From contig DYGS01000001.1 of the NCBI GenBank assembly GCA_020724585.1, forward strand, positions 559,027-623,026: DNA of 64,000 bases, given 5' to 3'. Position 1 is the first letter of the stretch. Each line of letters starts with the position of its first letter. The DNA comes from Candidatus Microgenomatus sp. Its GTDB lineage: Bacteria; Patescibacteriota; Microgenomatia; UBA8517. Below are positions 10,268 to 52,637 of the stretch, one piece after another. The translations under genes and the position numbers were made by a program. Below the pieces are notes generated by a model, which worked only from the letters and a program-made list of their open reading frames with translations, was not told where the DNA came from and made no database searches.

Positions 10268-10268
10268 T

Positions 10269-29365: not shown

Positions 29366-29366
29366 T

Positions 29367-29517
29367 CAGTGCTGTGGTACGAAAAAATTCGAAATCAATA
29401 TGCGAAAGCGTATTGATTGTTATTTTCCGATATTTCAAATCGTTTTAGCTCGTCCCGCCAAGCGGGACTCGCTTCCCGCTCCGGCTCGGCCTATTGGCCT
29501 CGCCTTCGCAAAGTGCT
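29367..29517 (+). repeat. GC-rich palindromic dispersed repeat, copy A (~150 nt; contains hairpin GTCCCGC-caa-GCGGGAC)
   Basis: Near-identical inverted copy at 32431-32574; shorter copies at 41848-41935 and 45648-45729. Confidence 0.8.
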
Positions 29518-29670
29518 GGCTCGAATCCTTTTTATGTTTTTAAAATGCAAAAATTTTTCGATTTTGGGAAACCAAAATCGTCGCGTTATATTTTTAGCTT
29601 ATTCCGTGAAGTAATAAGTTCAAGTAGAAAAATATTTCACTTAAACTAAAAGTGATAAAATACCTGCATA

Positions 29671-30174: not shown

Positions 30175-30198
30175 TAAAATTGGAGAAACAGTAAGCCA

Positions 30199-30705: not shown

Positions 30706-30824
30706 ATCAACAACTAGTTCTGCAACTGGTATTGTTACTGAAGATTAATATCACCTGTGTTATAAAGTCCTGTAACTTTTCCATTTAGTTCTGCGCTCAT
30801 AATGGGGATATTCTACCAATTTAG

Positions 30825-31355: not shown

Positions 31356-31436
31356 AAGGTTATTTTAACATAAAAATACTTAAGAACTCTCCACATTATT
31401 GCTTTTTGTGGAGAGTTCTCACAACGACGGGTTTGG

Positions 31437-31850
31437 TTACAGGAACATGCCGAGGATGATTCCAAGCGCAACTTGCTTGAAGATGTAATATTGGCTGAGG
31501 CCAATAAATTCATAATCATCCAAACGATAGTTCACATCATGCTGACTGAAGTAGAAACCTACCGCGTATCCAAGACCTGTGACAAGCCACTTCACCGGAT
31601 CGATGAGGCTTTGCAGGTATGCATGCGCGAGCAAGAAACTGACGACAGTTGCAAGAACGCTGAACCATGTCCATAAACCAACCTTGACTGTCCAATCATC
31701 GTCGCGTGCAAACTTGTATTTGCGGAAGATGATTTTGTATGGACCTACCAAGAGGTATTTCCACACAATGAAGATGGGCCACAAAAATGCTTCAACCCAA
31801 TCTTCACGACTATTGCCTTTCTTAACTTGTGTTGTCATTTGATCCTCCAA
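31437..31850 (-). CDS. hypothetical membrane protein in a locally GC-rich (~45%) segment
   Basis: 137-aa ORF, 3 predicted TM helices, Trp-rich; composition differs sharply from flanks. Confidence 0.45.
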   Translation of the reverse strand: MEDQMTTQVKKGNSREDWVEAFLWPIFIVWKYLLVGPYKIIFRKYKFARDDDWTVKVGLWTWFSVLATVVSFLLAHAYLQSLIDPVKWLVTGLGYAVGFYFSQHDVNYRLDDYEFIGLSQYYIFKQVALGIILGMFL

Positions 31851-32400
31851 TTGATCTTGACAGGTGTGCTAATAAGCCAGACGCTTACTATGGGAGGTAG
31901 TATATCAGTCTGTTAGATAGTAACGCAACTTTTGGAGTGTTACTCTTTCTGCCCATTCACATGGCGTAAGCCACCACCCTTGTAGCTTTGGGGTGTTTTG
32001 TGTTGGGCAGGATTCCCTGTTAAGGGAATATTTCAGGAGCAATAGTTTTGTCTGTTCTGCCTTCTAACCAAGTGCTGTGCCGAAGGCACTTTGGAGTTGT
32101 TTTATAGCACTTGGGTAGTTGCCCTCTAGGGCAAATTGCGACTGAAATTGTAATTGCGGTACCGCAACCGCAATCCGTTAGCCGTAATGCGGCTACCTGG
32201 CCGTATCTACGGCCAGTTTACGGACTGCGTGAGGTACTTGACGGTTACCCGTCAAACCCCGTTATGGGTATTTACTGTGTTTGTGTTATGGCTATATTCA
32301 AGATCGTTTGAATTTATTCAAATGTGAATTGAACATAGACATATGATTTTTAGGATAAAAATCATATAATATCACTGCAAAGCAGTGAAATTTGGCTCGC
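31851..32400. other. ~550-nt GC-enriched non-coding region packed with short perfect hairpins; possible structured RNA or replication/recombination site
   Basis: No ORF >65 aa. Hairpins include TTGCGGTACCGCAA, GGCCGTATCTACGGCC, GACGGTTACCCGTC, TCCCTGTTAAGGGA, GTGCCGAAGGCAC. Confidence 0.3.
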
Positions 32401-32430
32401 AAGCCAAATTTAAAATCGCGTCTTTGAAAC

Positions 32431-32574
32431 AAGCGGAGGCGAGGCCAAAGGCCGAGCCGGAGCGAGAAGCGAGTCCCGCTTGGCGGGACGAGCTAATACG
32501 ATTTGAAATATCGGAAAATAACAATCAATACGCTCTCGCATATTGATTTCGAATTTTTTCGTACCACAGCACTG
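32431..32574 (-). repeat. GC-rich palindromic dispersed repeat, copy B (inverted relative to copy A)
   Basis: Reverse complement matches 29367-29517 with a handful of mismatches. Confidence 0.8.
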
Positions 32575-32605
32575 AGTAGGACATTGGCAAAAATTAGATA
32601 GCTCA

Positions 32606-36375: not shown

Positions 36376-37572
36376 TTAAAATTCTTTTTTAAAATTGTTC
36401 AAAATCGCCTCCGCTAGTGCACTCGACAAAACGGTTGGAACAGCGTTTCCAACCTGTAGATTTCTATCCTGTCTTGATCCATAAAACTTATATGAATCTG
36501 GAAAACACTGTATTCTTGCTCCCTCTCTTGTAGTTAACGGTCTTGGTGCTTTAGGATGAATACACCTAGACGATGATGGTGTTCCTAAATTTCTGGTAAT
36601 CGTGGTTGAAGGTCTATTCCACCAAAGACGGCAATAGGTATTTTTAAAACCTGAGGATGGGCGTAAATCTTCAGGCAAATCCTTAGGTGTCCCACCGTCT
36701 GGCAATAACTCCATGATTTTTACAAGCTTTGGATTATTTCTAGGTGCATTATGGTCCATTAATTTTATCGGGGCGTTTATTCTCATTTTTCTTTGAAATT
36801 CATTTTTAGGCCCTGAAGCATATTCAAAACTCTCTTCGCCCGATTTTATAAAGGGAAGGTCACTAATAGCATCCTCAAGTGTCAAATAAGGTTTTAGCAA
36901 CCCATCAAATAATAATTGTGTATTCGATGGGTCATAATGTGTAGGCTCAGGATATTTGAAGTCACGATTAAGTTTCGACCCAATAATTACCACCCGCTCC
37001 CTTATTTGAGGTGCGCCAAAATCAGCCGCGTTAAGAACTTTATACCACACCTTGTAGCCTAATGACCGAAAAAGTGTGAGTATCGTCATTAGTAGTTCTC
37101 CGCGTTGCATTGAAAGCAATCCTTTTACATTTTCAAATAGAAAAACTCTTGGATTAAACTCACGCAGAACTCTGTAATATTCCTGGAATAGCTTACCTCT
37201 CGGATCATCTATTAGTCTTTTACCAACAGTTGAGTAAGCTTGGCATGGCGGACCACCAATCACAATATCTACCTCATTATCATAAACTCCCAAATCTTTC
37301 TTTATTTTATCAAAGTTAAAGTATTTAATATCTTCCGTATAGACTCTTACTGTTGGGTGATTTAATGAATAGGCTTTTGCCATGTTAGGCAATATTTCAT
37401 TAGCGGCAATTATTTCAAACTGTTCACAATTCGAAAAACCATAACTCAATCCGCCTACCCCACAAAATAGATCTATAACTTTAAGTTTTTTAGCCATAGT
37501 TCTAATCAAATTCAATTTCTTTATATTTAATTGGTGGTTCTGTAATTTTCCAAACAAAATAGTTTTGGTCAA
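36376..37572 (-). CDS. dcm: DNA (cytosine-5)-methyltransferase (type II R-M methylase)
   Basis: Motif I DLFCGVGG, motif IV GGPPCQAYS, motif VI ENV, motif VIII QRR. Likely true start at internal Met (MAKKLKVIDLF, ~37497), which gives a small overlap with the upstream gene. Confidence 0.85.
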   Translation of the reverse strand: MTKTILFGKLQNHQLNIKKLNLIRTMAKKLKVIDLFCGVGGLSYGFSNCEQFEIIAANEILPNMAKAYSLNHPTVRVYTEDIKYFNFDKIKKDLGVYDNEVDIVIGGPPCQAYSTVGKRLIDDPRGKLFQEYYRVLREFNPRVFLFENVKGLLSMQRGELLMTILTLFRSLGYKVWYKVLNAADFGAPQIRERVVIIGSKLNRDFKYPEPTHYDPSNTQLLFDGLLKPYLTLEDAISDLPFIKSGEESFEYASGPKNEFQRKMRINAPIKLMDHNAPRNNPKLVKIMELLPDGGTPKDLPEDLRPSSGFKNTYCRLWWNRPSTTITRNLGTPSSSRCIHPKAPRPLTTREGARIQCFPDSYKFYGSRQDRNLQVGNAVPTVLSSALAEAILNNFKKEF

Positions 37573-38278
37573 TATTAAAAACTGTCTGACCCTCCATTTG
37601 CTGCCTTGTTATCCAATTAATATTATTTTCAGATATTTGATTTAATTTTAAGAAGGCTGTCTGCCCATTATATAAATCTATATGAATTAAAATTGTCTCG
37701 ATACCCTCTAGTTCAAAAGCCTTTTTTGCTTCCAATACTTTGTGTTGTTTAATATCGTTTATTCCGCTAAAACCAGACTGCATTTCCACCTTTACTCTTT
37801 TATTATTTTCAAATTTTATTTCTAAATCAGCCTTTGGAGTTTTTTTGAACGAATTTATTTTCCTTAAGTCATCACTCCCTACTGGTTTAATTTTAGTTTT
37901 ATCAACCTCAAATATTAAACTTAGTGCTTTTGTGAAGTAATTTGAAATTACAAATCCTCTCATCCACGAAAAATAAACCTGTTCTGGTCGTCTTCCCAGA
38001 TTATTTAATCTGGGCAATATATTATTCTTTTTTATGATATCAAACGGTTCATCAATATACTTTCGACCAAACGAATTTAGATTATCGACTTTAATTTGGT
38101 CTGCAACGACAAAACTGAGATTCTTGATAATTTGGTAAAGGCGTTCATTGAGTAATTTGATATAATCAAAATCAATAGCAGGAACAACATCTTTAGCACT
38201 CAAAAAATTTTTAAAATTAGTTTGACTACTAAAGCCAAATTTTTGACGGTATTGTTTAAAATCTTCAGCGGCAAACAT
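37502..38278 (-). CDS. putative cognate type II restriction endonuclease
   Basis: 258-aa ORF immediately upstream of and overlapping the C5-methyltransferase in the same orientation. No family assignment is possible from sequence alone. Confidence 0.45.
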   Translation of the reverse strand: MFAAEDFKQYRQKFGFSSQTNFKNFLSAKDVVPAIDFDYIKLLNERLYQIIKNLSFVVADQIKVDNLNSFGRKYIDEPFDIIKKNNILPRLNNLGRRPEQVYFSWMRGFVISNYFTKALSLIFEVDKTKIKPVGSDDLRKINSFKKTPKADLEIKFENNKRVKVEMQSGFSGINDIKQHKVLEAKKAFELEGIETILIHIDLYNGQTAFLKLNQISENNINWITRQQMEGQTVFNIDQNYFVWKITEPPIKYKEIEFD

Positions 38279-38342: not shown

Positions 38343-39629
38343 TCAAATCAATTTTTTAATTTTTTTCCATGTGGCTTCGTAAGAAAAATGTTTCTGGCCC
38401 AACATAAAGTTTTTTTCAACAAGGCTTTTGATTTTATGAGTATTATTTAGATAACTTAATACTCTATTTACATCTTTTTTTGCCACACTGGGAGTTATTT
38501 CAATTGCTCCAAAACCCAAAGGCTTAATGTCTTTTTTATAAACCTCATAAGGAGTTATGATTACCGGTTTTTTAAAATAAACACTTTCAATAAATTGGTT
38601 GCCAAATCCTTCAAGTTCAGTTGGATAAGTTATAAAATCTGCATTTTTAAATGCATCCCAAAGTGTATAAACCCTTCTTCCAGTTCCTGGAATTATCCTC
38701 CTTCTAGAATTAACAAAATCACCAATAAACAAAACCCTCGACCCGTATTCTTTAGTTAATTGGTGTAATTTATTCTCATACTCATGGCCCTCGTCGCCGG
38801 AATGTCCTGCTATCACAAGCACAATATTTGGATTATTAAGTTTTTTGATAAGGTCAATTGAAACTTCAATTCTTTTTCTGGGCACAATTCTTGTAGGTTG
38901 AAGGAAAACAATGTCGTGAGGGGTTATCCCAAAATCTTTTCTAAAATTCTTGGAAAAACCGTCGTGTCTACTTAATTTTTTAGATGAGAAATCAAAGCAG
39001 TCGGTAATTATATCCGATCCTAAGTTAAATCTCTTTTTTAATTCCTTTTGAGAAATAGAATTTATAACAACATCTCTAATTTCGGGTAAATCGGGCGGAA
39101 ACCATTTTTTAAAAAATGGAAACATCGAAGATTTTAAATATCTTTTTCTTTCCCACCAAAAATCATGATGTCTCGCAATTGTTGGGATTTTATATTCTTC
39201 GATAATTCTTTTTAAAGAAATTGAAAGTGGAAAATGCATTGGCAGTGAAAAAACATTGGCAACGACTAAAAGATCCGGTTTTTTGCCATTTAAAGCATCT
39301 CGTAGTGCCCCTTCAATTTTCCCCGCGATCTTAAAAATTTCAGCTTGAACCGATTTATAATTATTATTTCCATAAACTATCTTTTGATGAAGTTCATAAA
39401 CTTCCGGGGAATTAAAATGAAGCTCGGGTATGACAATTCCCCTCCTATCAAGATCACCGGCCACATATTTAACTTTAAATTCATGCCTTTTAAATATGTT
39501 TCCCCATCTAACAGCCTCAAGTGAAACGCCATCATTTCCCGCGATGCGAAAGGATAATATCCAAACCAATTTTTTGGTTTTCATGACCTTATCAATATTT
39601 AATACTTTTAACAAAAATAAATCAATCAT
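38343..39629 (-). CDS. GT4-like (GT-B fold) glycosyltransferase
   Basis: N-terminal ISFRIAGNDGVSLEAVRW; E-x7-E motif EGFGNQFIE. Confidence 0.55.
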   Translation of the reverse strand: MIDLFLLKVLNIDKVMKTKKLVWILSFRIAGNDGVSLEAVRWGNIFKRHEFKVKYVAGDLDRRGIVIPELHFNSPEVYELHQKIVYGNNNYKSVQAEIFKIAGKIEGALRDALNGKKPDLLVVANVFSLPMHFPLSISLKRIIEEYKIPTIARHHDFWWERKRYLKSSMFPFFKKWFPPDLPEIRDVVINSISQKELKKRFNLGSDIITDCFDFSSKKLSRHDGFSKNFRKDFGITPHDIVFLQPTRIVPRKRIEVSIDLIKKLNNPNIVLVIAGHSGDEGHEYENKLHQLTKEYGSRVLFIGDFVNSRRRIIPGTGRRVYTLWDAFKNADFITYPTELEGFGNQFIESVYFKKPVIITPYEVYKKDIKPLGFGAIEITPSVAKKDVNRVLSYLNNTHKIKSLVEKNFMLGQKHFSYEATWKKIKKLI

Positions 39630-39667: not shown

Positions 39668-39853
39668 ATGGCGAAAAAAGGTGCAAGAGAAATTGTTGGC
39701 ATGATTTGTAAAGATTGCAAGTCACAGAATTATGTCACCGAAAGAAATAAGGTTAATATGGATGTTAAAGGCAGGGGCAAACTTGAACTTAAAAAATACT
39801 GTCAAACCTGCAAAAAACAAACTCTTCACAAAGAAACCTCAAAACTTAAATAG
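39668..39853 (+). CDS. rpmG: 50S ribosomal protein L33
   Basis: CKDCKSQNY...CQTCKKQTLHKETSKLK zinc ribbon pattern of L33. Confidence 0.8.
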   Translation: MAKKGAREIVGMICKDCKSQNYVTERNKVNMDVKGRGKLELKKYCQTCKKQTLHKETSKLK

Positions 39854-40020
39854 TGTGTCACTGATTTTTATTCCACCAAATTTCAACCCTTGGACAATTC
39901 TCCAGATCTTATACTTTTTAGGGTGTCTTTTTTTCATGACTACCTCGTCTATATTCCAATTAACTAGCATTAGTTAAATATAAAGCTTTTTGGTACAATA
40001 ATCTAGATTTTAAATAAAAA

Positions 40021-40111
40021 GGGTGTCGTTCAATGGTAAGCAGAGCTTGGCCATTGAACTAGTTAGATGTTCAATGGTAAACAGAGCTTGGCCATTGAAC
40101 TAGTTAGATGA
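40021..40111 (+). repeat. tandem duplication of the tRNA-Trp 5' segment: [GGGTGTC][GTTCAATGGTAA(G/A)CAGAGCTTGGCCATTGAACTAGTTAGAT] x2; each unit forms an 8-bp-stem hairpin TTCAATGG...CCATTGAA
   Basis: 40021-40038 identical to tRNA positions 40114-40131; unit repeated at 40028 and 40069. Confidence 0.8.
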
Positions 40112-40182
40112 AAGGGTGTCGTTCAATGGTAGGACATCGGTCTCCAAAACCGATAATGATAGTTCGATTCTATCCACCCTTG
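40112..40182 (+). tRNA. tRNA-Trp (anticodon CCA)
   Basis: Acceptor AAGGGTG/CACCCTT, D arm GTTC..GGAC, anticodon stem TCGGT/ACCGA with loop CTCCAAA, T arm GATAG TTCGATT CTATC, discriminator G. Confidence 0.75.
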
Positions 40183-40433
40183 CAAGAAAAGAAACACGCT
40201 CGGACAGGGTCGCCCCTGCCGGCGGGCGACCAAACAAAAAGAGCGAATTGAAGCCATTTTTGAGTACTGGTTTGAGGTGGCGGTTCTCCAAAAAGAAGTT
40301 CGATCCGGCGTTTTTTGCATGATTGGCTAAATCATGCAAATTATTTTTTGCGCGCGCGATTTTTGCCCCTGTTTTCGCGATTTTGATAAGTTCTAAAAGA
40401 GGTTCGAGTCTCCTTCCACCATTTTGATTAAAT

Positions 40434-41747
40434 TTAGACTTTTGGAGAGCAAATCTTTTGTTTTTCTTCAAAAATTTCATTCTTCTTTTTCTTGTAAACT
40501 TCAGGCTCAACAATATGCTCCAAATATCCATCAAGTAAGGTTTCCTCTTGATCCTCAAGATTTGAAATTTTTGATTGCAATTCTATTAATCTTTGAGAAG
40601 CAGATTGCTCTTCAATCAGTTTGTCTTTCTCATATAGATCCATGAATATTTTATATTCCTCGTCATCTATAGAGCATTTTAAGACCATGTTTCTAATCTG
40701 CTTCTCAAGTTCTACATCTGTTATGTATTTCTGTCTACAGTTCCCTAAACTTTTTGTGCATCTATAATAATTAAAAACAACTTTCCTGTTGGTTCTTTTG
40801 TAATATCTAGGATGGGTTTCAGCTGTAATAGCCGAACCACACTCAGCACACTTTATAAAACCGGTAAAAGGAAAGTTGTGTCCTTTAAGTCTCGGTCTTG
40901 CTAGTCTCTCCATTTGCTTTTGGACTTTGTTGAAAAGGTCTTTTGAAATGAAAGTTTTATGTGATCCTTTATACAAAACTCCGTTGTACAAAAACGTACC
41001 AACGTAAAATTTATTAGATAGCATATTTTTGACAGTATCAACTTTTAATTCCCTTTCACCTTTTCTATATATTCCACACTTAAATAACATTCTGGCAATT
41101 TCAGAATATGAAGTACCACCTTCTGCAAATTTTTCAAAAGCCTTTTTAACATATTTGGATTTTTCATCATCTACTTCAATTGATTTAATTTTCAAATCGT
41201 TGAAATATCCAATAGGAGCAAGTTTTGGCCAAACACCACGCCTTAGTTTTTCACGCAATCCTCGCTTTACATTTTCGCTTAAATTGTCAACATAATACTT
41301 GCTCTGTCCAAATGCGATTGAAAGCATAAACTTACCCTGTGGAGTATTATCAAACCAAAAAGTTGGGAACTTCAAGTCTAAAAGTTTGCCGGTATCTAAT
41401 AAATAAACAATTCTTCCGCCATCTATTGAATTTCTGGCAAGTCTATCTGGATGCCAAGAAAGAATTGCATTAGCTTCTCCTTTTTCAATTCTTTTTAAGA
41501 CCTCGGCAAACTTTTCTCTTCCAGGTTCTTTTGCGGTTTTACTTTCAGTTACAAAATCAATGACTTGAAGTTTTTCCCTTGAAGCAAACTCTTTTAATTC
41601 AGATAACTGTCCGTCAATAGACAACACCTGTCTATCTTTTTCATCAGTTGATTTTCGGCAATAACAAATGTATTTAATCATGTGGACAGAGTTCTCCTGT
41701 TTTCTAAAATTTTCGAGTTTTGTTTTTCTTCTTTTTTGTTTTGGCAA
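40434..41747 (-). CDS. large serine recombinase (phage-integrase/transposase type)
   Basis: N-terminal resolvase domain with catalytic Ser in YCRKSTDEK. Central recombinase domain. Zn-ribbon CAECGSAI...YYRCTKSLGNC. C-terminal coiled coil. Confidence 0.85.
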   Translation of the reverse strand: MPKQKRRKTKLENFRKQENSVHMIKYICYCRKSTDEKDRQVLSIDGQLSELKEFASREKLQVIDFVTESKTAKEPGREKFAEVLKRIEKGEANAILSWHPDRLARNSIDGGRIVYLLDTGKLLDLKFPTFWFDNTPQGKFMLSIAFGQSKYYVDNLSENVKRGLREKLRRGVWPKLAPIGYFNDLKIKSIEVDDEKSKYVKKAFEKFAEGGTSYSEIARMLFKCGIYRKGERELKVDTVKNMLSNKFYVGTFLYNGVLYKGSHKTFISKDLFNKVQKQMERLARPRLKGHNFPFTGFIKCAECGSAITAETHPRYYKRTNRKVVFNYYRCTKSLGNCRQKYITDVELEKQIRNMVLKCSIDDEEYKIFMDLYEKDKLIEEQSASQRLIELQSKISNLEDQEETLLDGYLEHIVEPEVYKKKKNEIFEEKQKICSPKV

Positions 41748-41847
41748 CTAAAACCAGAGTTAAAATTGCCCTTCAATCTGGTCTTTTCTGCAAGTGGCCG
41801 AATTCGGGCGGCCACGAAGCGAGAACGAATTTCCCTGTGGGCAGACT

Positions 41848-41935
41848 TGTACCGAAAAACTCGTACCGCTCTATTGTCGTAGCTCCGGCTCGTCACTTCG
41901 TTCCTCGCCTCCGCAAACGCCGGATCGAATTGTCC
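41848..41935 (+). repeat. GC-rich dispersed repeat, shortened copy D
   Basis: ...GTACCGAAAAACTCG...CCGGCTCG...CTCGCCTCCGCAAA...GGATCGAAT aligned to copy A. Confidence 0.5.
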
Positions 41936-42037
41936 TCTTGTTTTTAAAAACAAAACGAGAAAATTTTCGACAGCGACAAGCTGTCGCGCGCTATATTTTT
42001 ACTTTACTCTGTGAAGAAATTTATTCAAGCTTTAGAG

Positions 42038-42328
42038 TTATCTATCACCACATTGAGGGTGATATGAAGTTCTGATCGTAGACTCTATCCCTAGGCGCAT
42101 TTGCTCACCTGTCACTCTCAAAATATATAGATGTATATTGCCAGTTTTGCACGCTTCCCATTGTGACTGTCTTGGATGATTGGGGAATCTGTTGTTCAAA
42201 TCCTCTGTTTGTCCGACATCAAGCAGCCTCGGTTCAGCATCAATTATCGTATATACTGCCGCAATGGTATTGGTAAAACCCCTATAAGGATCGTACGGAC
42301 CTTCAAAGTTGTAACCTGATATATTCAT
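42038..42328 (-). CDS. small GIY-YIG nuclease-family protein
   Basis: AVYTIIDAEPRLLDVGQTEDLNNRFPNH = GIY...YIG...R...H pattern. Confidence 0.5.
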   Translation of the reverse strand: MNISGYNFEGPYDPYRGFTNTIAAVYTIIDAEPRLLDVGQTEDLNNRFPNHPRQSQWEACKTGNIHLYILRVTGEQMRLGIESTIRTSYHPQCGDR

Positions 42329-42347
42329 ACTTTCTTTGTTTTAGGGA

Positions 42348-42773
42348 TTGACAATCATAAAACATTGTAATAATATTACAACAGAGATGACAAAAAGTCA
42401 AGAGTTTTCTGCCCAAAACTTTGGTAGTTTCTTCAGAGATAAAAGGATTTCCCTGGGATTAAGTTTACGCAGTTTCTGTGAAAGATATGGCTACGATCCA
42501 GGAAACATAAGCAGACTCGAAAGAAACATACTTTCCCCAAGCATAGATGATGAGAAATTGGCAGGATATGCATCAGCTTTAAAAATACAAAGGGATAGCG
42601 AAGAGTGGGTACTTTTCCATGATTTAGCCCATGCCGCAAAGGGCAAAATTCCATCAGATATTAAAAATGACGAGGAAGTAATAAACATGCTTCCTGCATT
42701 TTTCCGAACAATGAGGAATAAGAAAATAGACAAGCAAAAATTGGAAAAGCTAATTCAACTACTTAAAAAATGA
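42348..42773 (+). CDS. XRE-family HTH transcriptional regulator
   Basis: FGSFFRDKRISLGLSLRSFCERYGYDPGNISRLERN helix-turn-helix. Confidence 0.75.
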   Translation: MTIIKHCNNITTEMTKSQEFSAQNFGSFFRDKRISLGLSLRSFCERYGYDPGNISRLERNILSPSIDDEKLAGYASALKIQRDSEEWVLFHDLAHAAKGKIPSDIKNDEEVINMLPAFFRTMRNKKIDKQKLEKLIQLLKK

Positions 42774-43394
42774 ATGAAAGATCCCACCTCCATATCCCTC
42801 ACCGAAGTCATAAATGCGGCTCGCGAATTCTCCAAAAAATATAACTCTGACTTAACCATTCCAACACCCATTGAAGATATTGTAGAAATACAACTTGGTA
42901 TAAAATTAATTCTTATTCAAGGATTAATACGTAACTTTAGTGTCAATGCTTTTATTACCCAAGATTTTTCTACGATTGTGGTTGATGAATACATGTTCTC
43001 GAAACAACCCGACAGAATTAGATTTACAATCGCGGAAGAAGTAGGTCATTTATTTCTACATAAAGACTGGTATTCTCTAAATGGCCCTAAATCGATTGAA
43101 GACTACTTAAAGTTTCAAGAAACAATTGACGGGAATCTTTACAGCTTTATAGAGAGACAGGCAAAAACTTTTGCGGGAATGATTTTAATTCCATCACCAG
43201 TGATCGAGCAAAAGTGGGCCGAGTTTGCTCAGAAAAATAACTTAAAAACACCATGCTTATTCTATGATTTACCTGACACCTTTCCAGACTTTGCTCGTTT
43301 ATTTCAAGTTAACCAGGTAAGTTTATTAATAAGACTCAAGGGCTTAAAATGTGTGGAGCTTCCGGACGGGTTTTGGAAAAAACTCAAAAAATAA
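42774..43394 (+). CDS. ImmA/IrrE-family metallopeptidase (COG2856-like)
   Basis: HExxH-like IAEEVGHLFLH; adjacent to and co-oriented with the XRE regulator, as in ImmR/ImmA modules of mobile elements. Confidence 0.6.
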   Translation: MKDPTSISLTEVINAAREFSKKYNSDLTIPTPIEDIVEIQLGIKLILIQGLIRNFSVNAFITQDFSTIVVDEYMFSKQPDRIRFTIAEEVGHLFLHKDWYSLNGPKSIEDYLKFQETIDGNLYSFIERQAKTFAGMILIPSPVIEQKWAEFAQKNNLKTPCLFYDLPDTFPDFARLFQVNQVSLLIRLKGLKCVELPDGFWKKLKK

Positions 43395-43404
43395 TACTAC
43401 TATT

Positions 43405-43794
43405 TCAATTCCTGCTTTCCAAAATTTTTTTCAGTTTTTCTAATATGTCTATTGTAAAAGGATCTGAAAGTTCTCCTTCATAAACCCATTCATAATATTC
43501 CATTTCACAAGAGTTGTTATCTAGTGGAGTAAATGTATATCTGACACGATAAGTTGAATTCTTTTGAGCAAAGGTAAATGTTTTGTCTTTTTCAAATTCT
43601 GTAACTTCATATTCGCTCCATACTCCTTCTTTATTTACATTTCTATATATACTTACAACTTTAACTGGCCATTCATTTGTTTCTTCTTTAACAATTGAAT
43701 TAACCCAAAGAGGTGTATTTTTCGGATCAGTAGTAAAGTTAAAAACTTCAGAAACTGGTTTATTTATCTTTATTGTTAGTTTTAAGTCTTTCAT
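43405..43794 (-). CDS. SRPBCC (START/Bet v1/AHSA1-like) domain protein
   Basis: 129 aa; beta-rich pattern [13 protein letters not shown]...[14 protein letters not shown] typical of polyketide-cyclase/AHSA1 family. Confidence 0.5.
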
Positions 43795-43813
43795 TTGATT
43801 AATAAGTATAACT

Positions 43814-45058
43814 TTACTCTGTAGATACTTCTGGTACGCGTAACTCTTCTTCCTTTTCTTTTGCTAAACTTATTTTCGCGTCTTTTTTCTTTAGAGAAAG
43901 ATAAATAGTAATAGCAATTGCAATAAGTATGGACCAAGCTACTAGAAAGTACTCAAGTTTATTTTGCGAATTCAAACTACCTATAATTGGAGCTAGTGCA
44001 ACATATGGTAAAGTACGCAAAAATGAACCAACAGAAAGTACGGTTGCACGCTGGCTTTCGTCTGTGCGGTAGTTTAATACTTCACTCATAAAAGGAACTA
44101 GTACATGTTCTCCAGCATATAAAGTTAGAATTACGATGTAACCCCACCATCCAATGTTCGCAATTGATAGCAGTAAGCTTGTGGCAGCTAAACCAGCTAT
44201 TAAAGTTAAAACTCTCTTTTCACTTAAATTATCTGCGTTTTTATGCATATATCCTAAAATACCAACGGTTATCAAACTACACGAGGCAATAACTATTGAC
44301 CCAACAAATGGACTAAAATGAAATCTATCTATTAAAACTAGACGAAGTAGCCCCCACCCAGCTGCATAGAATAAACCTTGTACTGTAATGATTATTGGGA
44401 CATAAAGAGCCAGTTTTTGTTTACTAAATTCAGTAAAGCCATTTTTTATACCTAAGAGATGCTCACGAAGTTCAAAGAAAGCTTTCTTTTTGTCTGCTTT
44501 TACTCTTTTGTCTTTAACAGACCAAACAATGGCGACAGAGCTTATCAATGAAAATCCTGTCAGTATCCATGGAATCCTAGGGTCAATATTGTGAAGCCAA
44601 CCTCCGAAAATTGTCGCAAACATACCCCCAATTAAGGCTATTTGAGAACCTCTGGTTATAAGTTTCCTCCAATCAGGAGAAGATTCCTTAAATTTCAAGT
44701 TGTCAAAAAATAATGCCTCGTCTGCGCCAGACACAAAAGATACACCAATCATCATTGTCGCCTGTCCAAATATAAATTGTCCGAGACTACTACCAAACGC
44801 TTGTATTACCAAACCAGAGCCAGCCAAAAACTGACCAAGTCTAACCATCTTGTCTCTTCCAAATTTGTCTGCCATTACGCCAGATGGTACCTCTGCCATT
44901 AGACCGATAGCAAATGCAACGCTATCTAAAATTCCAACTTGGCTGTCAGTTATATAAATTCTATAAAAATATAACCAAACAGCACCTAAAAACCAAAGAT
45001 TGGTAAGAAGCTTATAGATAAGAAACCTGGTGGAAAGCCACTTTTGACTTTTTGTCAT
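43814..45058 (-). CDS. MFS transporter
   Basis: 12 predicted TM helices; MFS motif A-like [16 protein letters not shown]. Confidence 0.8.
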
Positions 45059-45126
45059 TCTTCGACAATTATATCTCTAGGGAGTTCCTTTTTCACTACA
45101 AATAAATTATTGATATAATTCTAAAA

Positions 45127-45549
45127 ATGAAACTCCCCTGGTATGTTGTTCCAAAAACTGCCTTATTTGACTGGATTCCCTTGCTCGGAAAGTCTACTGC
45201 AAATAGTATTGGGCCATTTATCTTTATACCAACTAAAATATATATAGACTTAAAATCAGAAAATCCTAATCCCAAACACATTGCACTTCTAATTCATGAA
45301 GAAACTCACAGAAAAAGGCAAAAACAAATAGGATTTTTAAAGTTTGGAATGAAATACTTGTTTAATTCAAACTTTCGCTTTCAAGAAGAATTGATAGCCG
45401 TAAAAGAAGCTATGAAATATTTAAAGAAAAATAAAATAAAATTTGATTTTGACAAAAACTCAAAATTTCTTTCAAGTTATGTATATCTTTGGCCAGTCTC
45501 TAAAAAATATGCTGAAAAGGAACTAAAAAGAGTTTGGAATGAATTGTAG
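45127..45549 (+). CDS. HExxH-motif putative zinc metallohydrolase (DUF45/YgjP-like)
   Basis: ALLIHEETHRKRQKQ; family assignment weak. Confidence 0.35.
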   Translation: MKLPWYVVPKTALFDWIPLLGKSTANSIGPFIFIPTKIYIDLKSENPNPKHIALLIHEETHRKRQKQIGFLKFGMKYLFNSNFRFQEELIAVKEAMKYLKKNKIKFDFDKNSKFLSSYVYLWPVSKKYAEKELKRVWNEL

Positions 45550-45647
45550 CAGGGAGTTCATTAATTTCTACAAATACATTGTTCGCGCTGGGCTGGTTGG
45601 GGCAAGAACAATGTCAGGCGTTAGCCTGACCAAATCGCGCGCAAAAA

Positions 45648-45729
45648 AGCGGAGGCGAGGCCAAAGGCCGAGCCGGAGCGGAAGGTTCGGGTTATTCGAA
45701 TTGAGTTCGAATTTTTCGATACAACATTG
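45648..45729 (-). repeat. GC-rich dispersed repeat, internally deleted copy C
   Basis: AGCGGAGGCGAGGCCAAAGGCCGAGCCGGAGCG identical to copy B; flanking palindrome GTCAGGCTAACGCCTGAC. Confidence 0.6.
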
Positions 45730-45760
45730 CAAAGAAGGGAAAACAATATCATCAAAAGTC

Positions 45761-46885
45761 TCATTTTAATTTCCAATATGTAGTTGAATTTGTAATCACT
45801 TTTTGTCCCTCTCCATTTATATATGAATTGTGAACCGATTCGATAGGATCACTATTACCATCAACATGCGGAATAAATCCAAATTCACCACCTGAAACTG
45901 TCATAATAAATTCATCTCTTTTGAATAAATCCTGTGTCATGTAATGAAGCCCCTGAAAGTGAAGTGGAACACTGTCAGTTATATCGTCCTGTTCATAATA
46001 CTCTGAAAAAGCAAAAACCACATCTTTTCCTCTAAATACATTAGACAGGGCTCTGAGCGTATCAATTGCAAGATGTCTTTCTTCATGCAGGATATAACCA
46101 ATATGGACAATCAATCTACCATCTCCCACCCTCTTGGCAATTTCTTCCAAACCTTTTTCATCTTTCATGTCCAAAACACTAATTTCATATCTTTCCTCTT
46201 CAATTCCAGCATTTTGCAAATTCTCTCCCGCTGTCTCAAAAACCGCAGGATTTATATCAGTAACTAATGCTCGCACATCCGGATATGCTAATAAAAATTT
46301 TTTTGAAAAATTTCCTGATCCCGATCCTAATTCTAGAAGAATTTGTCTGTCAGGAAATTTATCACGCAAATCTCTAACAATACTATTAGATGCAGGTGAC
46401 ATCAAGGCGTCTGATGCTAGATGGTTTATGACAGGATTTCTGTATACATTCCCACCAAATCCATACGAGATTTCCCCCCTCACTATTTTGGCAAAGTTTT
46501 CAAGTAAACTCTTTTCATAACCGGAAATCAAGAGGGCAAAGGAAGCGCTATGTAATAATGGGGCCTCATATTGGCCACCAAACTCTCTCAAAAACCTCTT
46601 TTTATCCCAACCAGCAACTATTGCATAAAGTTGAAGATTTGCAAGCTCATGAGTTAGTTTTTTAAAATGTATCAGCTCTTGCGGTGAAGGTATTACCCCT
46701 CCATTTACCATCTTGAACTGTTCCAAAAATTTTAAAGCGCCAGTATAAACCTTTCCTTCTTTATCAAATTCTTGATCTTTAAGCTCATCAAGTCCAGAAA
46801 GTAAATAGTGGGCAATAGCTCCAGACAAAACTAGCTGAGGACTTAATTTTTCTCTCATTTCTGCTCTTTTGGCTATTTCTTGCAT
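45761..46885 (-). CDS. class I SAM-dependent (O-)methyltransferase with N-terminal dimerisation-like domain
   Basis: Motif I LELGSGSGNF; acidic motif II VLDMKDE; COMT-like architecture. Confidence 0.65.
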   Translation of the reverse strand: MQEIAKRAEMREKLSPQLVLSGAIAHYLLSGLDELKDQEFDKEGKVYTGALKFLEQFKMVNGGVIPSPQELIHFKKLTHELANLQLYAIVAGWDKKRFLREFGGQYEAPLLHSASFALLISGYEKSLLENFAKIVRGEISYGFGGNVYRNPVINHLASDALMSPASNSIVRDLRDKFPDRQILLELGSGSGNFSKKFLLAYPDVRALVTDINPAVFETAGENLQNAGIEEERYEISVLDMKDEKGLEEIAKRVGDGRLIVHIGYILHEERHLAIDTLRALSNVFRGKDVVFAFSEYYEQDDITDSVPLHFQGLHYMTQDLFKRDEFIMTVSGGEFGFIPHVDGNSDPIESVHNSYINGEGQKVITNSTTYWKLK

Positions 46886-47021
46886 ATAGATTTTTAAAAA
46901 TTTTTCAATTCTAGCACAATTTAAAAAAATTTGTTATAATTCCCCAAATCCTATAGTAAACACAAGTGTGCTATTTGTGTGATAGAATAATTCTCTGACT
47001 TGGTGCATAAAATTTAACAAT

Positions 47022-47339
47022 ATGACGGAACAAATGGGACCATTACATTTTCCCAGAAGCGGCTTTGTCTCCCCACCTGATGGAACATTGATTTGGGAAA
47101 CACTTTCAAATGGAACTTTTTATACAATAACTTTTCGAATTAATGAAAAAGAACTTACACACTTAGATGCTGGAAAGGTGCCTTCTGTAAATAACATTGC
47201 CGAATTACTACAAAGTACACTTAAAGATGAAATTACCAGTAATATTGGTGGAAGAACTCCTAATTTCATCAGTGATGTTTTACGAATGATAAGAACACTC
47301 CCATCTGACAGTCCGTCACACTTTAGTGAATATAACTAA
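47022..47339 (+). CDS. hypothetical protein
   Basis: 105-aa ORF, no motif. Confidence 0.3.
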   Translation: MTEQMGPLHFPRSGFVSPPDGTLIWETLSNGTFYTITFRINEKELTHLDAGKVPSVNNIAELLQSTLKDEITSNIGGRTPNFISDVLRMIRTLPSDSPSHFSEYN

Positions 47340-47353
47340 AAATGGAGCCATCC

Positions 47354-48355
47354 CTATTTCAACCTTGCAATGTTGGCATTAACCATCATTTTAACCAACT
47401 CTTTAAATGTCGTTTTAGAAGTCCAATTCAAAACTTTTTTTGCCTTCTGAGGGTTTCCAACTAATGGCCCTGTTTCAGTTGGTCTTATAAATCTTTTATC
47501 AACCACCACATATTTCTCCCAATCCAAACCAACCGTCGAAAATGCTTCTTCACAAAGTTCTTTAATAGTATGCGTCTCACCTGTTGCTATTACAAAATCA
47601 TCCGGAGTATCTATTTGCAACATTTTCCACATAGCTTCAACAAAATCGCCGGCATACCCCCAATCTCTTTTGGCTTCCAGGTTGCCAAGTGCTACTTTCC
47701 CATTTTTTACAATCGGCTCTCCCTCTTCATTTAAATAATCTGAAGTTTTTATTCCCAATTTTGCACAAGCCGCCGCATATGTTACTTTTTGGGTTACAAA
47801 ACCTAAGTGACGGCGGGGTGATTCATGATTAAAAAGAATTCCGCAGGCTGCGAAAAAATTATAACTTTTTCTATAGATTTTAGCGATTGTATGTGCATAA
47901 AGTTTGGCAGAAGCATATGGGTTGGCAGGATTAAAGGGAGTATCTTCGTCTTGCGGGACTTTTTTAATCCAGCCAAACATTTCAGACGAACTTGCCTGAT
48001 AAAACTTTGCCTTAGGATTGACATCCAAAGTAGCATCCAAAACTCTATGCGCCCCTAAACCTGTAATTTCTGCAGTATGTATAGGTTGTTTAAAACTTTC
48101 CGAAGGATGGCTTTGCGAAGCTAAATTATAAACCTCATCGGGGTTAACTTTTTGAATAATTTCCCGCAGGGCCACTGGGTCTAATAAATCCCCTTGATAT
48201 AATTTTAAATTATCTTGGATATGGCCGATGTTGGCATATGCCTCATGGGAGGTTTTCCTGACAATACCGGATACCTCATACCCCTTTTTAAGCAAGAATT
48301 CTGCCAAATAACTTCCATCCTGCCCTGTTATACCTGTAATTAATGCTTTTTTCAT
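47354..48355 (-). CDS. gmd: GDP-mannose 4,6-dehydratase
   Basis: ALITGITGQDGSYLAEFLL Rossmann start, catalytic YxxxK (YASAKLY), full-length SDR-extended pattern. Confidence 0.9.
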   Translation of the reverse strand: MKKALITGITGQDGSYLAEFLLKKGYEVSGIVRKTSHEAYANIGHIQDNLKLYQGDLLDPVALREIIQKVNPDEVYNLASQSHPSESFKQPIHTAEITGLGAHRVLDATLDVNPKAKFYQASSSEMFGWIKKVPQDEDTPFNPANPYASAKLYAHTIAKIYRKSYNFFAACGILFNHESPRRHLGFVTQKVTYAAACAKLGIKTSDYLNEEGEPIVKNGKVALGNLEAKRDWGYAGDFVEAMWKMLQIDTPDDFVIATGETHTIKELCEEAFSTVGLDWEKYVVVDKRFIRPTETGPLVGNPQKAKKVLNWTSKTTFKELVKMMVNANIARLK

Positions 48356-48402
48356 CCAGTTGACATGATATTAACATAGTTTCATACTAATGTTAAAGTG
48401 CG

Positions 48403-49035
48403 ATGATTAAAAATTCCATTCCAATAGCAATCAAGGCTAAAGTTGCCTTGGGTCTATTTTTGGCGATCACAATTGCCCTTCCACTTTTCGTATGGACTGC
48501 AATAAATGTGAACTTCAATGTCAACAAAAGAGCGCAGGGTGAGCCAAACTTCTGCGGCGGAACATGTGGTAGCAATTTTAATTGTCAACCCAATTTTTTT
48601 TGTTATATAGAAAATGGACAAACATCGGGTTATTGTAGAAATCCCATTTGTGCCCAAGATACTGACTGTATATGTAATACCCCAACAGCAACCGCTTTAT
48701 CAACTGCGGTATCTACTAAAACGGCGGCAGCAAAAACAGCGTCTCCATCCATATCGCCAACTTTAGAACCAAAAGGTGGTAGTCTAAACACAACGAGCCC
48801 TACTAAGCCTACATCATCTCCTGATTTTAATGTCATTAAAGACAATTTAAGCGATGATCTTGATAGAGACGATGGAGAAAATGGAGTTGAAAATAAGTGG
48901 CTTTCAAATTTTGCCAAGTATACAATCTTTTTTGCAATTGCTCTTGGTTTAATAATTGCAATTGTCATAATTTCAAAAGTTGTGAGATCCAAAAAAGACA
49001 ATATTCCACACATTGTCCCCCCGCAAAATATTTGA
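48403..49035 (+). CDS. secreted/membrane-tethered Cys-rich protein with Thr/Ser/Pro-rich linker and C-terminal TM anchor
   Basis: Signal/TM at N-terminus; 10 Cys in CGGTCGSNFNCQPNFFCYIENGQTSGYCRNPICAQDTDCIC; TSPTKPTSSP linker; C-terminal TM IFFAIALGLIIAIVIIS. Confidence 0.5.
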   Translation: MIKNSIPIAIKAKVALGLFLAITIALPLFVWTAINVNFNVNKRAQGEPNFCGGTCGSNFNCQPNFFCYIENGQTSGYCRNPICAQDTDCICNTPTATALSTAVSTKTAAAKTASPSISPTLEPKGGSLNTTSPTKPTSSPDFNVIKDNLSDDLDRDDGENGVENKWLSNFAKYTIFFAIALGLIIAIVIISKVVRSKKDNIPHIVPPQNI

Positions 49036-49095
49036 TATAATCAGACTATTGTGAGAGGAGGCGATTTTTAAATTAAATGTCAAAGAAAATAAATT

Positions 49096-49308
49096 TTGGC
49101 ATATTCAAAAGCTATGTTTATAGTCACCAAGAAAAAGGGAGAATCAGAGGATGCACTTTTGGCCCGCTTTCGAAAGAAAGTGGTATTATCGGGTCTTCTT
49201 CCCGAACTTCGGGAAAGGGAAAGATTTAAAAAACCATCCCAAAAACGAAAAGAGAAAAAATACAGAATTGAATTTCAGAAATATCTTGAAAAGAAAAGAA
49301 ATTATTAA
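49096..49308 (+). CDS. rpsU: 30S ribosomal protein S21
   Basis: ESEDALLARFRKKVVLSGLLPELRERERFKKPSQKRKEKK vs S21 [40 protein letters not shown]. Confidence 0.65.
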   Translation: MAYSKAMFIVTKKKGESEDALLARFRKKVVLSGLLPELRERERFKKPSQKRKEKKYRIEFQKYLEKKRNY

Positions 49309-49493
49309 TGAATAAGATTGTTGGTTTTTTAAAAGAAGTCAAATTAGAGCTTGAAAAAGTCTCTTGGCCAAAACGCGAAGAAGTGATAAACTACCTTGTT
49401 TTGGTCGTAATTATAAGCGTCATCGTCTCGGGATTTGTAGGTTTGGTAGATTTCAGTCTAACCAAATCACTTGAAAAATTGCTTATTAAATAA
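49308..49493 (+). CDS. secE: preprotein translocase subunit SecE
   Basis: 61 aa, ELEKVSWPKREEV then single TM; position directly upstream of nusG. Confidence 0.75.
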   Translation: MNKIVGFLKEVKLELEKVSWPKREEVINYLVLVVIISVIVSGFVGLVDFSLTKSLEKLLIK

Positions 49494-50104: not shown

Positions 50105-50118
50105 GATAACAATTTTAA

Positions 50119-50322
50119 TCAATCACCTTTATTTTCTTTCTCTGAGTTGGATAACAAGCTATTAATTACTTTTTCTTCACCATCAACAGTTAAAGAAAAG
50201 CCCTCATTTGTATGTCCCAATTGAACCCTTTTTCCTTCCGAATCTGTTTCTTCTCTTACTACCATTATCACTTTTTTTACCGGCTTTTCATTATCTTCTG
50301 CCATATTGAATAGATTATACAA
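50119..50322 (-). CDS. hypothetical small acidic protein
   Basis: 67-aa ORF, opposite strand within the r-protein cluster; uncertain. Confidence 0.25.
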   Translation of the reverse strand: MYNLFNMAEDNEKPVKKVIMVVREETDSEGKRVQLGHTNEGFSLTVDGEEKVINSLLSNSEKENKGD

Positions 50323-50434
50323 TAATGCTACAATAATGCTACCTCGAAGTTCTGTTTGAGGGAGACTAAACAGGTCGAAACTTCTAATTTGTTTCTTCTT
50401 GTTTGTCTTCTAAGTACTATGTACTAAAATATAT

Positions 50435-51645: not shown

Positions 51646-51651
51646 AATTAT

Positions 51652-51903
51652 CTAACCATTTTTAGTAACCATTTGTCCAGGTCTTTCGTGGTTATTTTTT
51701 CCACCTTTTAAATGAGTATTGTTATGTCTTTTTAAAACGTCCATCAATTTTCTAGAAGGTTTTCCAGAAATAACTTTATATATCTCATCATTATCTTTAT
51801 CACTAATTGGTTTAAGACGAATTATAGTAACAGGCCTTCCGTCCTCTCTAGACACATCAGTACCCTCGATACTAACTAGGTGACTTTTGAATTCAGGTAT
51901 CAT
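51652..51903 (-). CDS. hypothetical protein
   Basis: 83-aa ORF in the rplA-rplJ spacer, opposite strand. Confidence 0.25.
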   Translation of the reverse strand: MIPEFKSHLVSIEGTDVSREDGRPVTIIRLKPISDKDNDEIYKVISGKPSRKLMDVLKRHNNTHLKGGKNNHERPGQMVTKNG

Positions 51904-52019
51904 AATCGATATTATTCATCACTTCGAAGCAATTATCTTGAGTTTTTCTTGAAGACTATTTAAATATATTACCTTTAAAACAAACTCTAAAAACTTGTTT
52001 TGATAACTATCAAGTATTG

Positions 52020-52226
52020 TTAATTTCCCCATATTAAAAACTTCAAATAATTTCGGGATTCTGGATCAATTCTAGGACTTAAGTCAGACCAATACTTAAT
52101 TACTTCTTTTTTATTTAACTTTTCACCATCAAGACCATAATTTATTAGTTGAGTAATTCTCCAAAGTTTATACTTCTTAGGGTTTGATTTCTTCATCTTT
52201 TTTTCATCAACTGTCCAGTTAATCAT
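52020..52226 (-). CDS. hypothetical protein
   Basis: 68-aa ORF, Trp-containing, opposite strand. Confidence 0.25.
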   Translation of the reverse strand: MINWTVDEKKMKKSNPKKYKLWRITQLINYGLDGEKLNKKEVIKYWSDLSPRIDPESRNYLKFLIWGN

Positions 52227-52305
52227 ATTCTATTATACCATGAAGTCTAGTCCCCAGGCACAAAGATTGGGCCTTGATTTTTAGGCGTAATAGACTTACA
52301 TTGTA

Positions 52306-52536
52306 TTGTATCGTATGAGTGATATTCCACCAAATCCAGACTTAACATCCAAAGAGAAAATATTTTGGAAAAAAGCAAGGCAAAAGATACAATTTTTTGA
52401 TAAAAACCGCACACAACCGTTGCGTACTGTTAGAACTACTTCTGGCCCTTACGGAATACTTGATGACCTAAGGAGAGAAGAAAAAACAACTCCGGTTGTT
52501 CCGCCTCCACCAACTGACAACCAAAACAACGCTTGA
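52306..52536 (+). CDS. hypothetical Pro-rich protein
   Basis: 76-aa ORF in the rplJ leader region; may be spurious. Confidence 0.2.
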   Translation: MYRMSDIPPNPDLTSKEKIFWKKARQKIQFFDKNRTQPLRTVRTTSGPYGILDDLRREEKTTPVVPPPPTDNQNNA

Positions 52537-52585
52537 TATATAAATCAAGACAGGTTAAAATAACATGTCCGTAGAAATTGTGTAT

Positions 52586-52617
52586 ACGCGTAAGCAGAGC
52601 TTGGCACCGCTTCGCGT
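52586..52617 (+). promoter_or_regulatory. palindromic leader element upstream of rplJ (ACGCG-TAAGCAGAGCTTGGCACCGCTT-CGCGT); candidate L10(L12)4 autoregulatory site
   Basis: Lies 20 nt upstream of the rplJ start. Shares the 16-mer GTAAGCAGAGCTTGGC with the tandem hairpins at 40028-40109. Confidence 0.3.
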
Positions 52618-52637
52618 TGTAAATCACACCGAGGAAT

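Follow-up and report, generated by a model that had tools for sequence, protein, structure and literature searches.

The tRNA-Trp gene studied here very probably has a 5.5-kb cargo element integrated at its 3' end. The element would belong to a family that is common in the Candidate Phyla Radiation (CPR, or Patescibacteria) and that enters the extreme 3' ends of tRNA genes by means of a large serine recombinase. The gene lies in a stretch of 64,000 nucleotides from Candidatus Microgenomatus sp., a genome of the Candidatus Woesebacteria (contig DYGS01000001.1, positions 559,027 to 623,026), called the window below, and all coordinates refer to it. The element occupies 40186-45732. A first-pass annotation of the same DNA had taken everything from tRNA-Trp to the ribosomal protein gene rpsU, ending at 49095, for a single island of about 9 kb. 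The map offered here corrects this: the mobile part makes up 5.5 of those 8.9 kb, and its recombinase is broken. The main value of the exercise lies beyond the window, in the exposure of a widespread family of serine recombinases that target the tips of tRNA genes and share an unusual, conserved layout of repeats.

The boundaries are best approached from the tRNA itself. tRNA-Trp(CCA) (40112-40183, plus strand) is intact as judged by ARAGORN and by Rfam (64.5 bits), and it would be both the target and the tRNA half of attB, the attachment site on the chromosome. The first-pass annotation had suggested a search for attachment sites around the junctions, and candidate sites are there. The hexamer TTGCAA occurs on the plus strand at 40180-40185, where it is made up of the last two acceptor bases, the discriminator G73 and CAA, and it occurs again at 45727-45732, at the junction with the chromosome, giving an inserted unit of about 40186-45732, or 5,547 bp, with TTGCAA at both ends. 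Next to the first of these cores lies arm X (40186-40300, minus strand), which contains the last codons of the recombinase tail and a GC hairpin (40208-40231) and is 71% identical to the X arm of locus L084. Next to the second lies arm A (45634-45726, plus strand), in which a GC-rich repeat (45643-45680) is followed by a pseudo T-arm and acceptor, GAGTTCGAATTTTTCGATACAACA, and which is 86% identical to the A arm of L084. L084 is an intact element at a tRNA-Trp site, with the identical core at the equivalent junction. The junction at the tRNA reads ...CCACCC TTGCAA GAAAAGAAAC... and the distal one reads ...GAGTTCGAATTTTTCGATACAACA TTGCAA AGAAGGGAAAAC...

Beyond the distal core comes what appears to be the original 3' flank of tRNA-Trp (45733-45757, plus strand, AGAAGGGAAAACAATATCA...), for it matches the sequence that follows tRNA-Trp in L026 and L030. 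If tRNA-Trp is joined to this flank, the result is ...CCACCCTTGCAAAGAAGGGAAAAC, to be compared with ...CCACCCTTGCAAAGAAGGTAAAC directly behind tRNA-Trp in the element-free L026 and ...CCGACCTTGCAAAGAAGGAAATAC in L030. The empty site is thus predicted to read tRNA-Trp...CCCTTGCAA followed by AGAAGGGAAAAC, and the junction of an excised circle X...CTTTTC, then TTGCAA, then TGTTGTATCGAAAAATTCGAAC. From the two TTGCAA junctions, the arms resembling those of L084 and the flank matching L026 and L030, taken together, it follows that the element measures 5,547 bp.

The ends have no long direct repeat, and the true repeat is the 6-nt core. A displaced fragment of tRNA-Trp at the far end was sought and rejected, the best local-alignment score being 22, inside the range of shuffled sequences (mean 21, maximum 27). 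The compositional anomaly that an island might have been expected to display is absent, as neither GC content nor skew shows a step at either boundary, and GC is 0.30-0.41 inside and outside. Logan contigs break at 45647-45676, which might have been read as excision or strain variation. That reading was rejected: where they break the contigs overlap, they agree with the window at 100% identity, and the position of the break is explained by its falling in a 38-nt A repeat that has a second copy at 32427-32464.

How much of the DNA beyond 45732 could be mobile can be judged from relatives. The synteny set consisted of 80 relatives fetched around nusG, onto which the proteins and tRNAs of the window were mapped; the nearest of them in a collection of species-representative genomes are metagenome-assembled genomes of Candidatus Woesebacteria / Microgenomates with NusG identities of 64-87%. 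Neighbours were counted in the 66 relatives whose upstream sequence extends to 3 kb or more, and the distance from tRNA-Trp to secE in the 29 that hold both. The first-pass annotation supposed that the insertion had split a cluster of rpmG, tRNA-Trp and secE. In none of the 29 Woesebacteria relatives is that cluster contiguous or tRNA-Trp adjacent to secE; the gap runs from 1.5 to 9.3 kb. To judge from gene order, separation of tRNA-Trp from secE is the normal state of the clade, with gmd-rpsU-secE as the resident order. The gene rpsU precedes secE in 59 of 66 relatives, gmd (at least 70% identical and on the same strand) lies upstream of secE in 29, and a gene like orf210 is found near secE in 15. 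Because they recur as neighbours of secE, gmd, orf210 and rpsU are best assigned to the resident locus and not to the cargo. The order is compact, rpmG-tRNA-Trp-gmd-rpsU-secE, in L021, L016, L044 and L028, and L074 fits tRNA-Thr/Tyr/Thr-rpmG-tRNA-Trp-rpsU-secE within 2.4 kb. What varies is the slot from tRNA-Trp to gmd, 0.4-6.7 kb in relatives and different in content from one to the next. A homologue of the recombinase is found in the locus in just one of the 80 species-level relatives, L036 (CP011214.1), at the same site. The element is sporadic, a case of presence and absence at one locus.

In the light of these comparisons it is hardly credible that the entire 8.9 kb from tRNA-Trp to rpsU was brought in as one island by the recombinase. 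The idea has in its favor that the recombinase stands at the tRNA edge and that the genes of 42038-47339 have no homologue in the tRNA-Trp-gmd slot of any of the 80 relatives, save for one like orf140 in L018 (38% identical). The part from 47354 to 49095 is contradicted already, since gmd, rpsU and the orf210-like gene are kept upstream of secE in relatives that have no recombinase. Moreover, an arm and core typical of the family (45634-45732) are followed by the ancestral flank of the tRNA, and no att-like repeat occurs from 45733 to 49095. The two genes just past the boundary, ORFs (open reading frames) of 374 and 105 amino acids that together span 45761-47339, are most simply viewed as lineage-specific DNA beyond the att sites.

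The recombinase itself was recognized in the first-pass annotation as ORF 40434-41747, ending some 250 nt from the tRNA. The identification holds. The ORF has the three domains of a large serine recombinase, Resolvase (PF00239, E 1e-20, residues 27-173), Recombinase (PF07508, E 1e-15) and Zn_ribbon_recom (PF13408, E 1e-9), and an N-terminal motif, YCRKS, whose serine is, by analogy with other enzymes of this class, likely the nucleophile. Its best PHROG match is the integrase phrog_95 (E 7e-70). Residues 2 to about 415, the heptad-like region included, align at a distant level with structures of SPbeta SprA. The end of the gene, in contrast, has to be moved. The intact comparator is the L036 recombinase, an uninterrupted ORF of 530 amino acids. 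ORF 40434-41747 corresponds to its residues 1-410 (81% identity), and an ORF in another frame, 40100-40558, corresponds to residues 413-519 (49% identity) and reads antisense through the tRNA. Since coding continues in this second ORF, the gene in the window is frameshifted and abuts the tRNA: a pseudogene in two frames, 40100-41747 on the minus strand. The frame changes near 40444-40455, beside a run of A, by an insertion of 1 nt or a deletion of 2 nt, and the changed sequence is identical in an independently assembled Logan contig (L166). Homologues have the single uninterrupted frame that the window copy lacks. Even the supposed degenerate tRNA 3' end at 40391-40411 turns out to encode GGRRLEP of the recombinase tail (GGGRLEP in L036), and the coding region therefore reaches the tRNA.

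The element in the window is one of many. Of 8,000 sequences scored in a search with the protein, 7,946 reached E <= 1e-20, though large serine recombinases generally are included in this count; the named matches among the best 120 come from Woesebacteria, Gottesmanbacteria, Curtissbacteria, Parcubacteria and Patescibacteria. Many of the homologues in databases are about 900 amino acids long. The family set used here is the best 80 of 520 confirmed metagenome loci, 44-73% identical and scanned with the intact protein. ARAGORN finds a tRNA gene, convergent with the recombinase, at or overlapping its 3' end in 59 of the 80, and several of the remaining contigs end within a tRNA or hold a truncated one. 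The tRNAs are those for Trp, Lys, Pro (3 anticodons), Gly (2), Glu, Ala (2), Leu, Ile (2), Ser (4), Gln and Val. In 57 of the 59 loci the frame of the recombinase has no stop ahead of the tRNA 3' end, the stop lying beyond the junction. In L109-L112 (proteins P0011-P0020) the frame runs about 2.3 kb beyond tRNA-Ile(gat), giving ORFs of about 1,300 amino acids, which may be fusions or products of read-through. In L111 and L116 the recombinase lies between tRNA-Ala(tgc) and tRNA-Ile(gat), a pair typical of rRNA operon spacers. None of 81 family loci is a circular contig, and the viral collection IMG/VR has a single distant relative.

Intact elements share a layout. With the recombinase on the plus strand, the order is Y, core, A, cargo, A', core', D', recombinase, X, core and tRNA (antisense), where A' (about 45-165 nt) repeats A in reverse complement and D' (about 30-120 nt) does the same for X. 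The X/D' pair is present in 47 of 47 testable loci, and the A/A' pair, which encloses 0.6-8.9 kb, in 49 of 59. A strict pattern locates a conserved A-type motif beside D' in 35 of the 47 loci, and visual inspection locates it in the rest. Within an element the arms are 96-100% identical in most loci, while they differ from element to element. In the six loci where all three junctions were read (L103, L084, L134, L036, L159 and L144), the outer junctions are direct and share a core of 4-9 nt with the internal site. Read on the opposite strand, the internal site gives exactly X, core, A, the junction that an excised circle would have. All 47 testable loci thus carry, between cargo and recombinase, an inverted copy of the predicted attP, the attachment site on the element.

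The core lies at the tRNA terminus in more than 30 loci of the family (for example GTCG, GAGC, GTGG, GCAG or TGGCGG), and read by tRNA it is CGAC for Pro, GCTC for Gly, CCAC for Ile, CTGC or TTGCAA for Trp, CCGCCA for Ser. By my reading of the sequences, the cores would cover the last acceptor bases, the discriminator and the base after it (73/74). Arm A has a conserved motif, (T/C)(A/G)CGAAAAA(A/G)T(T/C)CGAAC, 7-9 nt from the core. It is a look-alike of the T-loop, but its distance from the core exceeds that of the T-loop in a real tRNA by about 5 nt. The attP half-sites of serine integrases are about 5 bp longer than those of attB, and the shift may correspond to this difference. Arm X begins purine-rich, like a natural tRNA trailer. 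Four loci (L130, at 8295-18075, L119, L089 and L090) are tandem arrays in which a second element sits between the X arm of the resident and the tRNA. Because second elements insert at that place, the tRNA half-site alone would seem to suffice for insertion. Each array has two tandem elements per tRNA, each with its own sets of inverted repeats, and the pair in L090 sits beside neighboring tRNA-Gly and tRNA-Pro genes.

I propose that attP consists of X, core and A on the element, that attB consists of the tRNA 3' end, the core and the downstream flank, and that the two exchange within the core of 4-9 nt, which spans the discriminator base (73) and base 74. Arm A would mimic the T-arm and acceptor end of a tRNA (the TTCGAAC motif), and arm X its purine-rich trailer. 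Integration would then replace only the trailer, and the tRNA would stay intact because the exchange falls at bases 73/74. The recombinase gene would come to rest at the tRNA-proximal edge, convergent with the tRNA, its frame crossing the junction. Two refinements were considered and dropped. A palindromic GC crossover dinucleotide fits the Ser and Trp sites and fails as a rule of the family, as the Pro, Ile and Gly cores are not palindromic. A folded, single-stranded attP in the style of integron attC or the CTX phage was rejected on mechanism, because the double-strand breaks made by a serine recombinase would leave chromosome ends capped by hairpins.

So many inverted repeats invite a different view, that these are not mobile elements at all but resident inversion systems, with the recombinase working as a phase-variation switch that turns over its own gene or the cargo between the repeats. 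It is true that the recombinase gene has inverted repeats of 30-120 nt on either side in 47 of 47 loci and the cargo in 49 of 59, and arms that are 96-100% identical within an element suggest ongoing exchange between them. It is too much to expect of such a switch, however, that it be found at 13 different tRNA specificities, present or absent among relatives and in tandem arrays. Its outer junctions should not be direct rather than inverted, as they are. Nor does anything seem to flip: with respect to the recombinase, the cargo points the same way in every related contig, so that there is no sign of frequent flipping. One locus does speak for a switch in having its recombinase turned the other way relative to the tRNA, the variant L107 (9600-13570). 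Its recombinase and tRNA-Leu(gag) run in the same direction, with about 140 nt between the tRNA and the start codon. L107 has no inverted repeats; its repeat is direct, 21 nt long, shared by the recombinase tail (11315-11335) and the distal A arm (13444-13464). In the window itself the arms no longer match. I consider an inversion system quite improbable.

Improbable too is the idea that two mobile modules were joined at the tRNA, a recombinase with identical inverted ends of type x and a cargo with identical inverted ends of type a, each circularizing to a palindromic att site in an integron-like manner. The fusion of circles with palindromic sites would indeed yield two mutually inverted junctions, L130 and L119 show chains of repeat-flanked modules, and the window has, at 29353-32577, a cassette with A-type inverted arms and no recombinase beside a tRNA-Tyr 3' fragment. 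The chains fit whole elements inserting successively beside a tRNA equally well, though. Every recombinase module seen has an adjacent A half-site, by the counts given above, arrays of several cargo cassettes were not seen, and the Pro, Ile and Gly cores are, again, non-palindromic.

There remains, within the proposal of a tRNA-tip element, a doubtful but consequential variant: the internal inverted attP may be a part of the mechanism and not a relic, the circle having two identical, opposed attP sites. Such a circle would resemble the yeast 2-micron plasmid with its inverted repeats. Were this so, two isomers of integration could exist, one with the recombinase silent and convergent with the tRNA, the other with the recombinase driven by read-through from the tRNA, and they would provide a self-limiting ON/OFF switch or an excision independent of a directionality factor. 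Recombinase and cargo modules could separate and fuse again, an integron-like exchange run by a serine recombinase in the CPR. The universal T-loop could serve as a half-site, which would make the specificity retargetable to any tRNA.

In the window the internal site looks decayed. Upstream of the recombinase lies a mosaic (41703-41970) bracketed by a 25-nt inverted repeat (41703-41727 and 41946-41970). It contains what seems to be a relic of the internal inverted attP, here called J2: an X-like part (41788-41838), a core GGGCAG (41839-41844) and an A-like part (41845-41928). J2 is 55% identical to the element's own X arm and 58% to its A arm, in place of the 96-100% of intact relatives, and its core is of the L036/L103 type and not TTGCAA. 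The mosaic also has a 15-nt inverted copy (41915-41929) of the tail codons at 40299-40313. The two copies of a GC-rich repeat seen in the first pass, at 41875-41928 and 45634-45699, are real. With its recombinase frameshifted before the conserved tail and its internal attP diverged, the element of the window is probably immobile, an old or chimeric copy.

Several points weigh against this account. The match of the empty site to L026 and L030 spans only about 20 nt past the tRNA, and because arm X opens with a similar purine-rich motif, the match is suggestive, not decisive. The shared core is only 6 nt. Neither an excised circle nor an empty site from the same species was found: the only other assemblies match the window at 100% identity, and exact-protein look-ups with NusG (which occurs on JGI contig Ga0246236_1000003, 644 kb), RpmG and the 374-residue ORF turned up no genome of the species that lacks the element. 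A recombination directionality factor was not identified either. A simple integrase model does not account for the internal inverted attP. Finally, the frameshift sits near a run of A, and a ribosome might bypass it.

That tRNA genes here are struck repeatedly, the integration hotspot of the first-pass annotation, is borne out. Intact elements stand at tRNA-Trp in L036, L084 and L103. X-type sequence lies directly behind tRNA-Trp in two loci without a recombinase, L044 (7460-8053) and L009 (2674-2775), and in L044 pieces of the A arm and of the internal site survive as well. These tracts appear to be scars of lost elements. Within the window, tRNA-Tyr is followed by the cassette mentioned above (29289-32600), which has inverted A-type arms of about 150 nt (29367-29510 and 32424-32577). 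A 17-nt copy of the tRNA-Tyr 3' end (29353-29369, 16 of 17 matching) lies 64 nt past the tRNA, head-to-head with an A-type arm. The distal arm of this cassette is followed by GGACATTGGCAAAAATT, as between tRNA-Leu and the 5' end of the recombinase in L107, and 29507-29620 resembles the 3' tail of a recombinase.

The duplications of the 5' half of tRNA-Trp noted in the first pass can be described exactly. They amount to 93 nt ahead of the tRNA (window 40018-40131), with an exact 21-nt copy of its 5' end (40018-40038 and 40111-40131) and two tandem 41-nt units (40028-40109), each of which forms a 9-bp hairpin, GTTCAATGG/CCATTGAAC. The duplication is identical in the Logan contig L166 and was not seen upstream of tRNA-Trp in L036.

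After the recombinase pseudogene the element carries orf96 (42038-42328, minus strand), an XRE repressor (42348-42773, plus), an ImmA/M78 protease (42774-43394, plus), an SRPBCC protein (43405-43794, minus), an MFS transporter (43814-45058, minus) and an ORF of 140 amino acids with the HExxH motif HEETH (45127-45549, plus). The cargo listed in the first pass thus stands as regards XRE/ImmA, SRPBCC, MFS and HExxH. The GIY-YIG label of orf96 is weak, a PHROG endonuclease match (E 1.6e-4) being its sole support, and so is that of the methyltransferase-like ORF of 374 amino acids (45761-46885, minus), whose Pfam matches are all under the family cut-offs; it lies outside the element, as does the 105-residue ORF (plus). 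The gene gmd (47354-48355, minus, E 5e-113) is resident. With orf210, rpsU (49096-49308) and secE, all on the plus strand and followed by nusG, it forms the part conserved in Woesebacteria (47354-49493), likewise outside. The earlier calls of rpmG (39668-39853, PF00471), tRNA-Trp, rpsU, secE and nusG are all correct, the tRNA ending at 40183. The Rfam scan of the window gave four tRNAs and nothing else.

Elsewhere in the window, tRNA-Thr(ggt) is followed by a C5 DNA methylase (PF00145) and an ORF of 258 amino acids (36376-38278), with no A- or X-type repeats in that interval. The glycosyltransferase at 38343-39629 has homologues beside rpmG in several relatives. The gaps between nusG and rplK (50105-50434) and between rplA and rplJ (51646-52637) are unusually long and hold small minus-strand ORFs (61, 83 and 68 amino acids), also present in the Logan contigs.

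What is the family good for? CPR bacteria have tiny genomes and few described mobile elements, and an abundant family of small elements that enter the tips of genes for at least 13 tRNA specificities with variable cargo offers a concrete route of gene flux. Large serine recombinases are also valued tools of genome engineering, and a clade of related enzymes directed at different tRNAs, with sites that appear to mimic the T-arm and acceptor end, would suit the study of their recognition and attempts to aim it elsewhere. The searchable literature gave no published description of this element family, of a conserved internal inverted attP or of a recombinase frame that crosses attP.

The only precedent found for a large serine recombinase at tRNA sites is a minority of the tycheposons of Prochlorococcus. 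These are small cargo elements at tRNA genes, many of them with replication genes, of which 27 of 937 have a large serine recombinase and the other 910 use tyrosine recombinases (bioRxiv 10.1101/2020.12.28.424599). Compared by description only, they differ in that neither an ORF crossing att nor an internal inverted attP is reported by Hackl et al.

The large serine integrases of temperate phages and of ICEs (integrative and conjugative elements), among them those of phiC31, Bxb1 and A118 and SPbeta SprA, have the same resolvase, recombinase and zinc-ribbon domains as the enzyme of the window. They too are encoded at the edge of their element and use a very short core of identity. Their target is a protein-coding gene, whereas here it is the tip of the tRNA 3' end, and in contrast to them the ORF here crosses attP (57 of 59) and a second, inverted attP lies within (47 of 47). 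The elements are also smaller, about 3-10 kb, and phage or conjugation genes were not seen in the window copy. Its PHROG matches are to an integrase, a repressor, a metalloprotease and, weakly, an endonuclease, genes for virion, packaging and lysis were not found, and the ORFs of 40100-45732 have no Pfam or NCBIfam match to relaxase or conjugation genes.

Another known system is the staphylococcal cassette chromosome SCCmec, which likewise moves by large serine recombinase. The best NCBIfam match of the window enzyme is CcrB of the CcrA/CcrB pair (E 1e-29), at 103 bits far below the 900-bit cut-off. Like this family, SCC elements insert at the 3' end of a conserved housekeeping gene that stays functional, bring cargo but no transfer genes of their own, and accrete in tandem at a single site. 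SCCmec, though, targets rlmH, with a pair of recombinases and no double inverted-repeat layout, while the family described here targets tRNA genes with a single recombinase in a different host phylum.

The choice of target is shared with islands that use tyrosine integrases, such as P4-like islands and ICEs, which also go to tRNA 3' ends, keep the integrase beside the tRNA and preserve the tRNA. Integration of those islands leaves a direct repeat copied from the tRNA, and this repeat commonly exceeds the length of the core found here. In the present family the repeat is 4-9 nt, no segment of the tRNA is displaced, and the catalytic family is another. The archaeal integrases of the SSV1 type, finally, have a frame that likewise spans the att site, so that integrated and free forms differ in their C-termini. 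SSV1 uses a tyrosine recombinase whose gene is split upon integration, whereas in the present family the change is confined to residues that follow the conserved tail.

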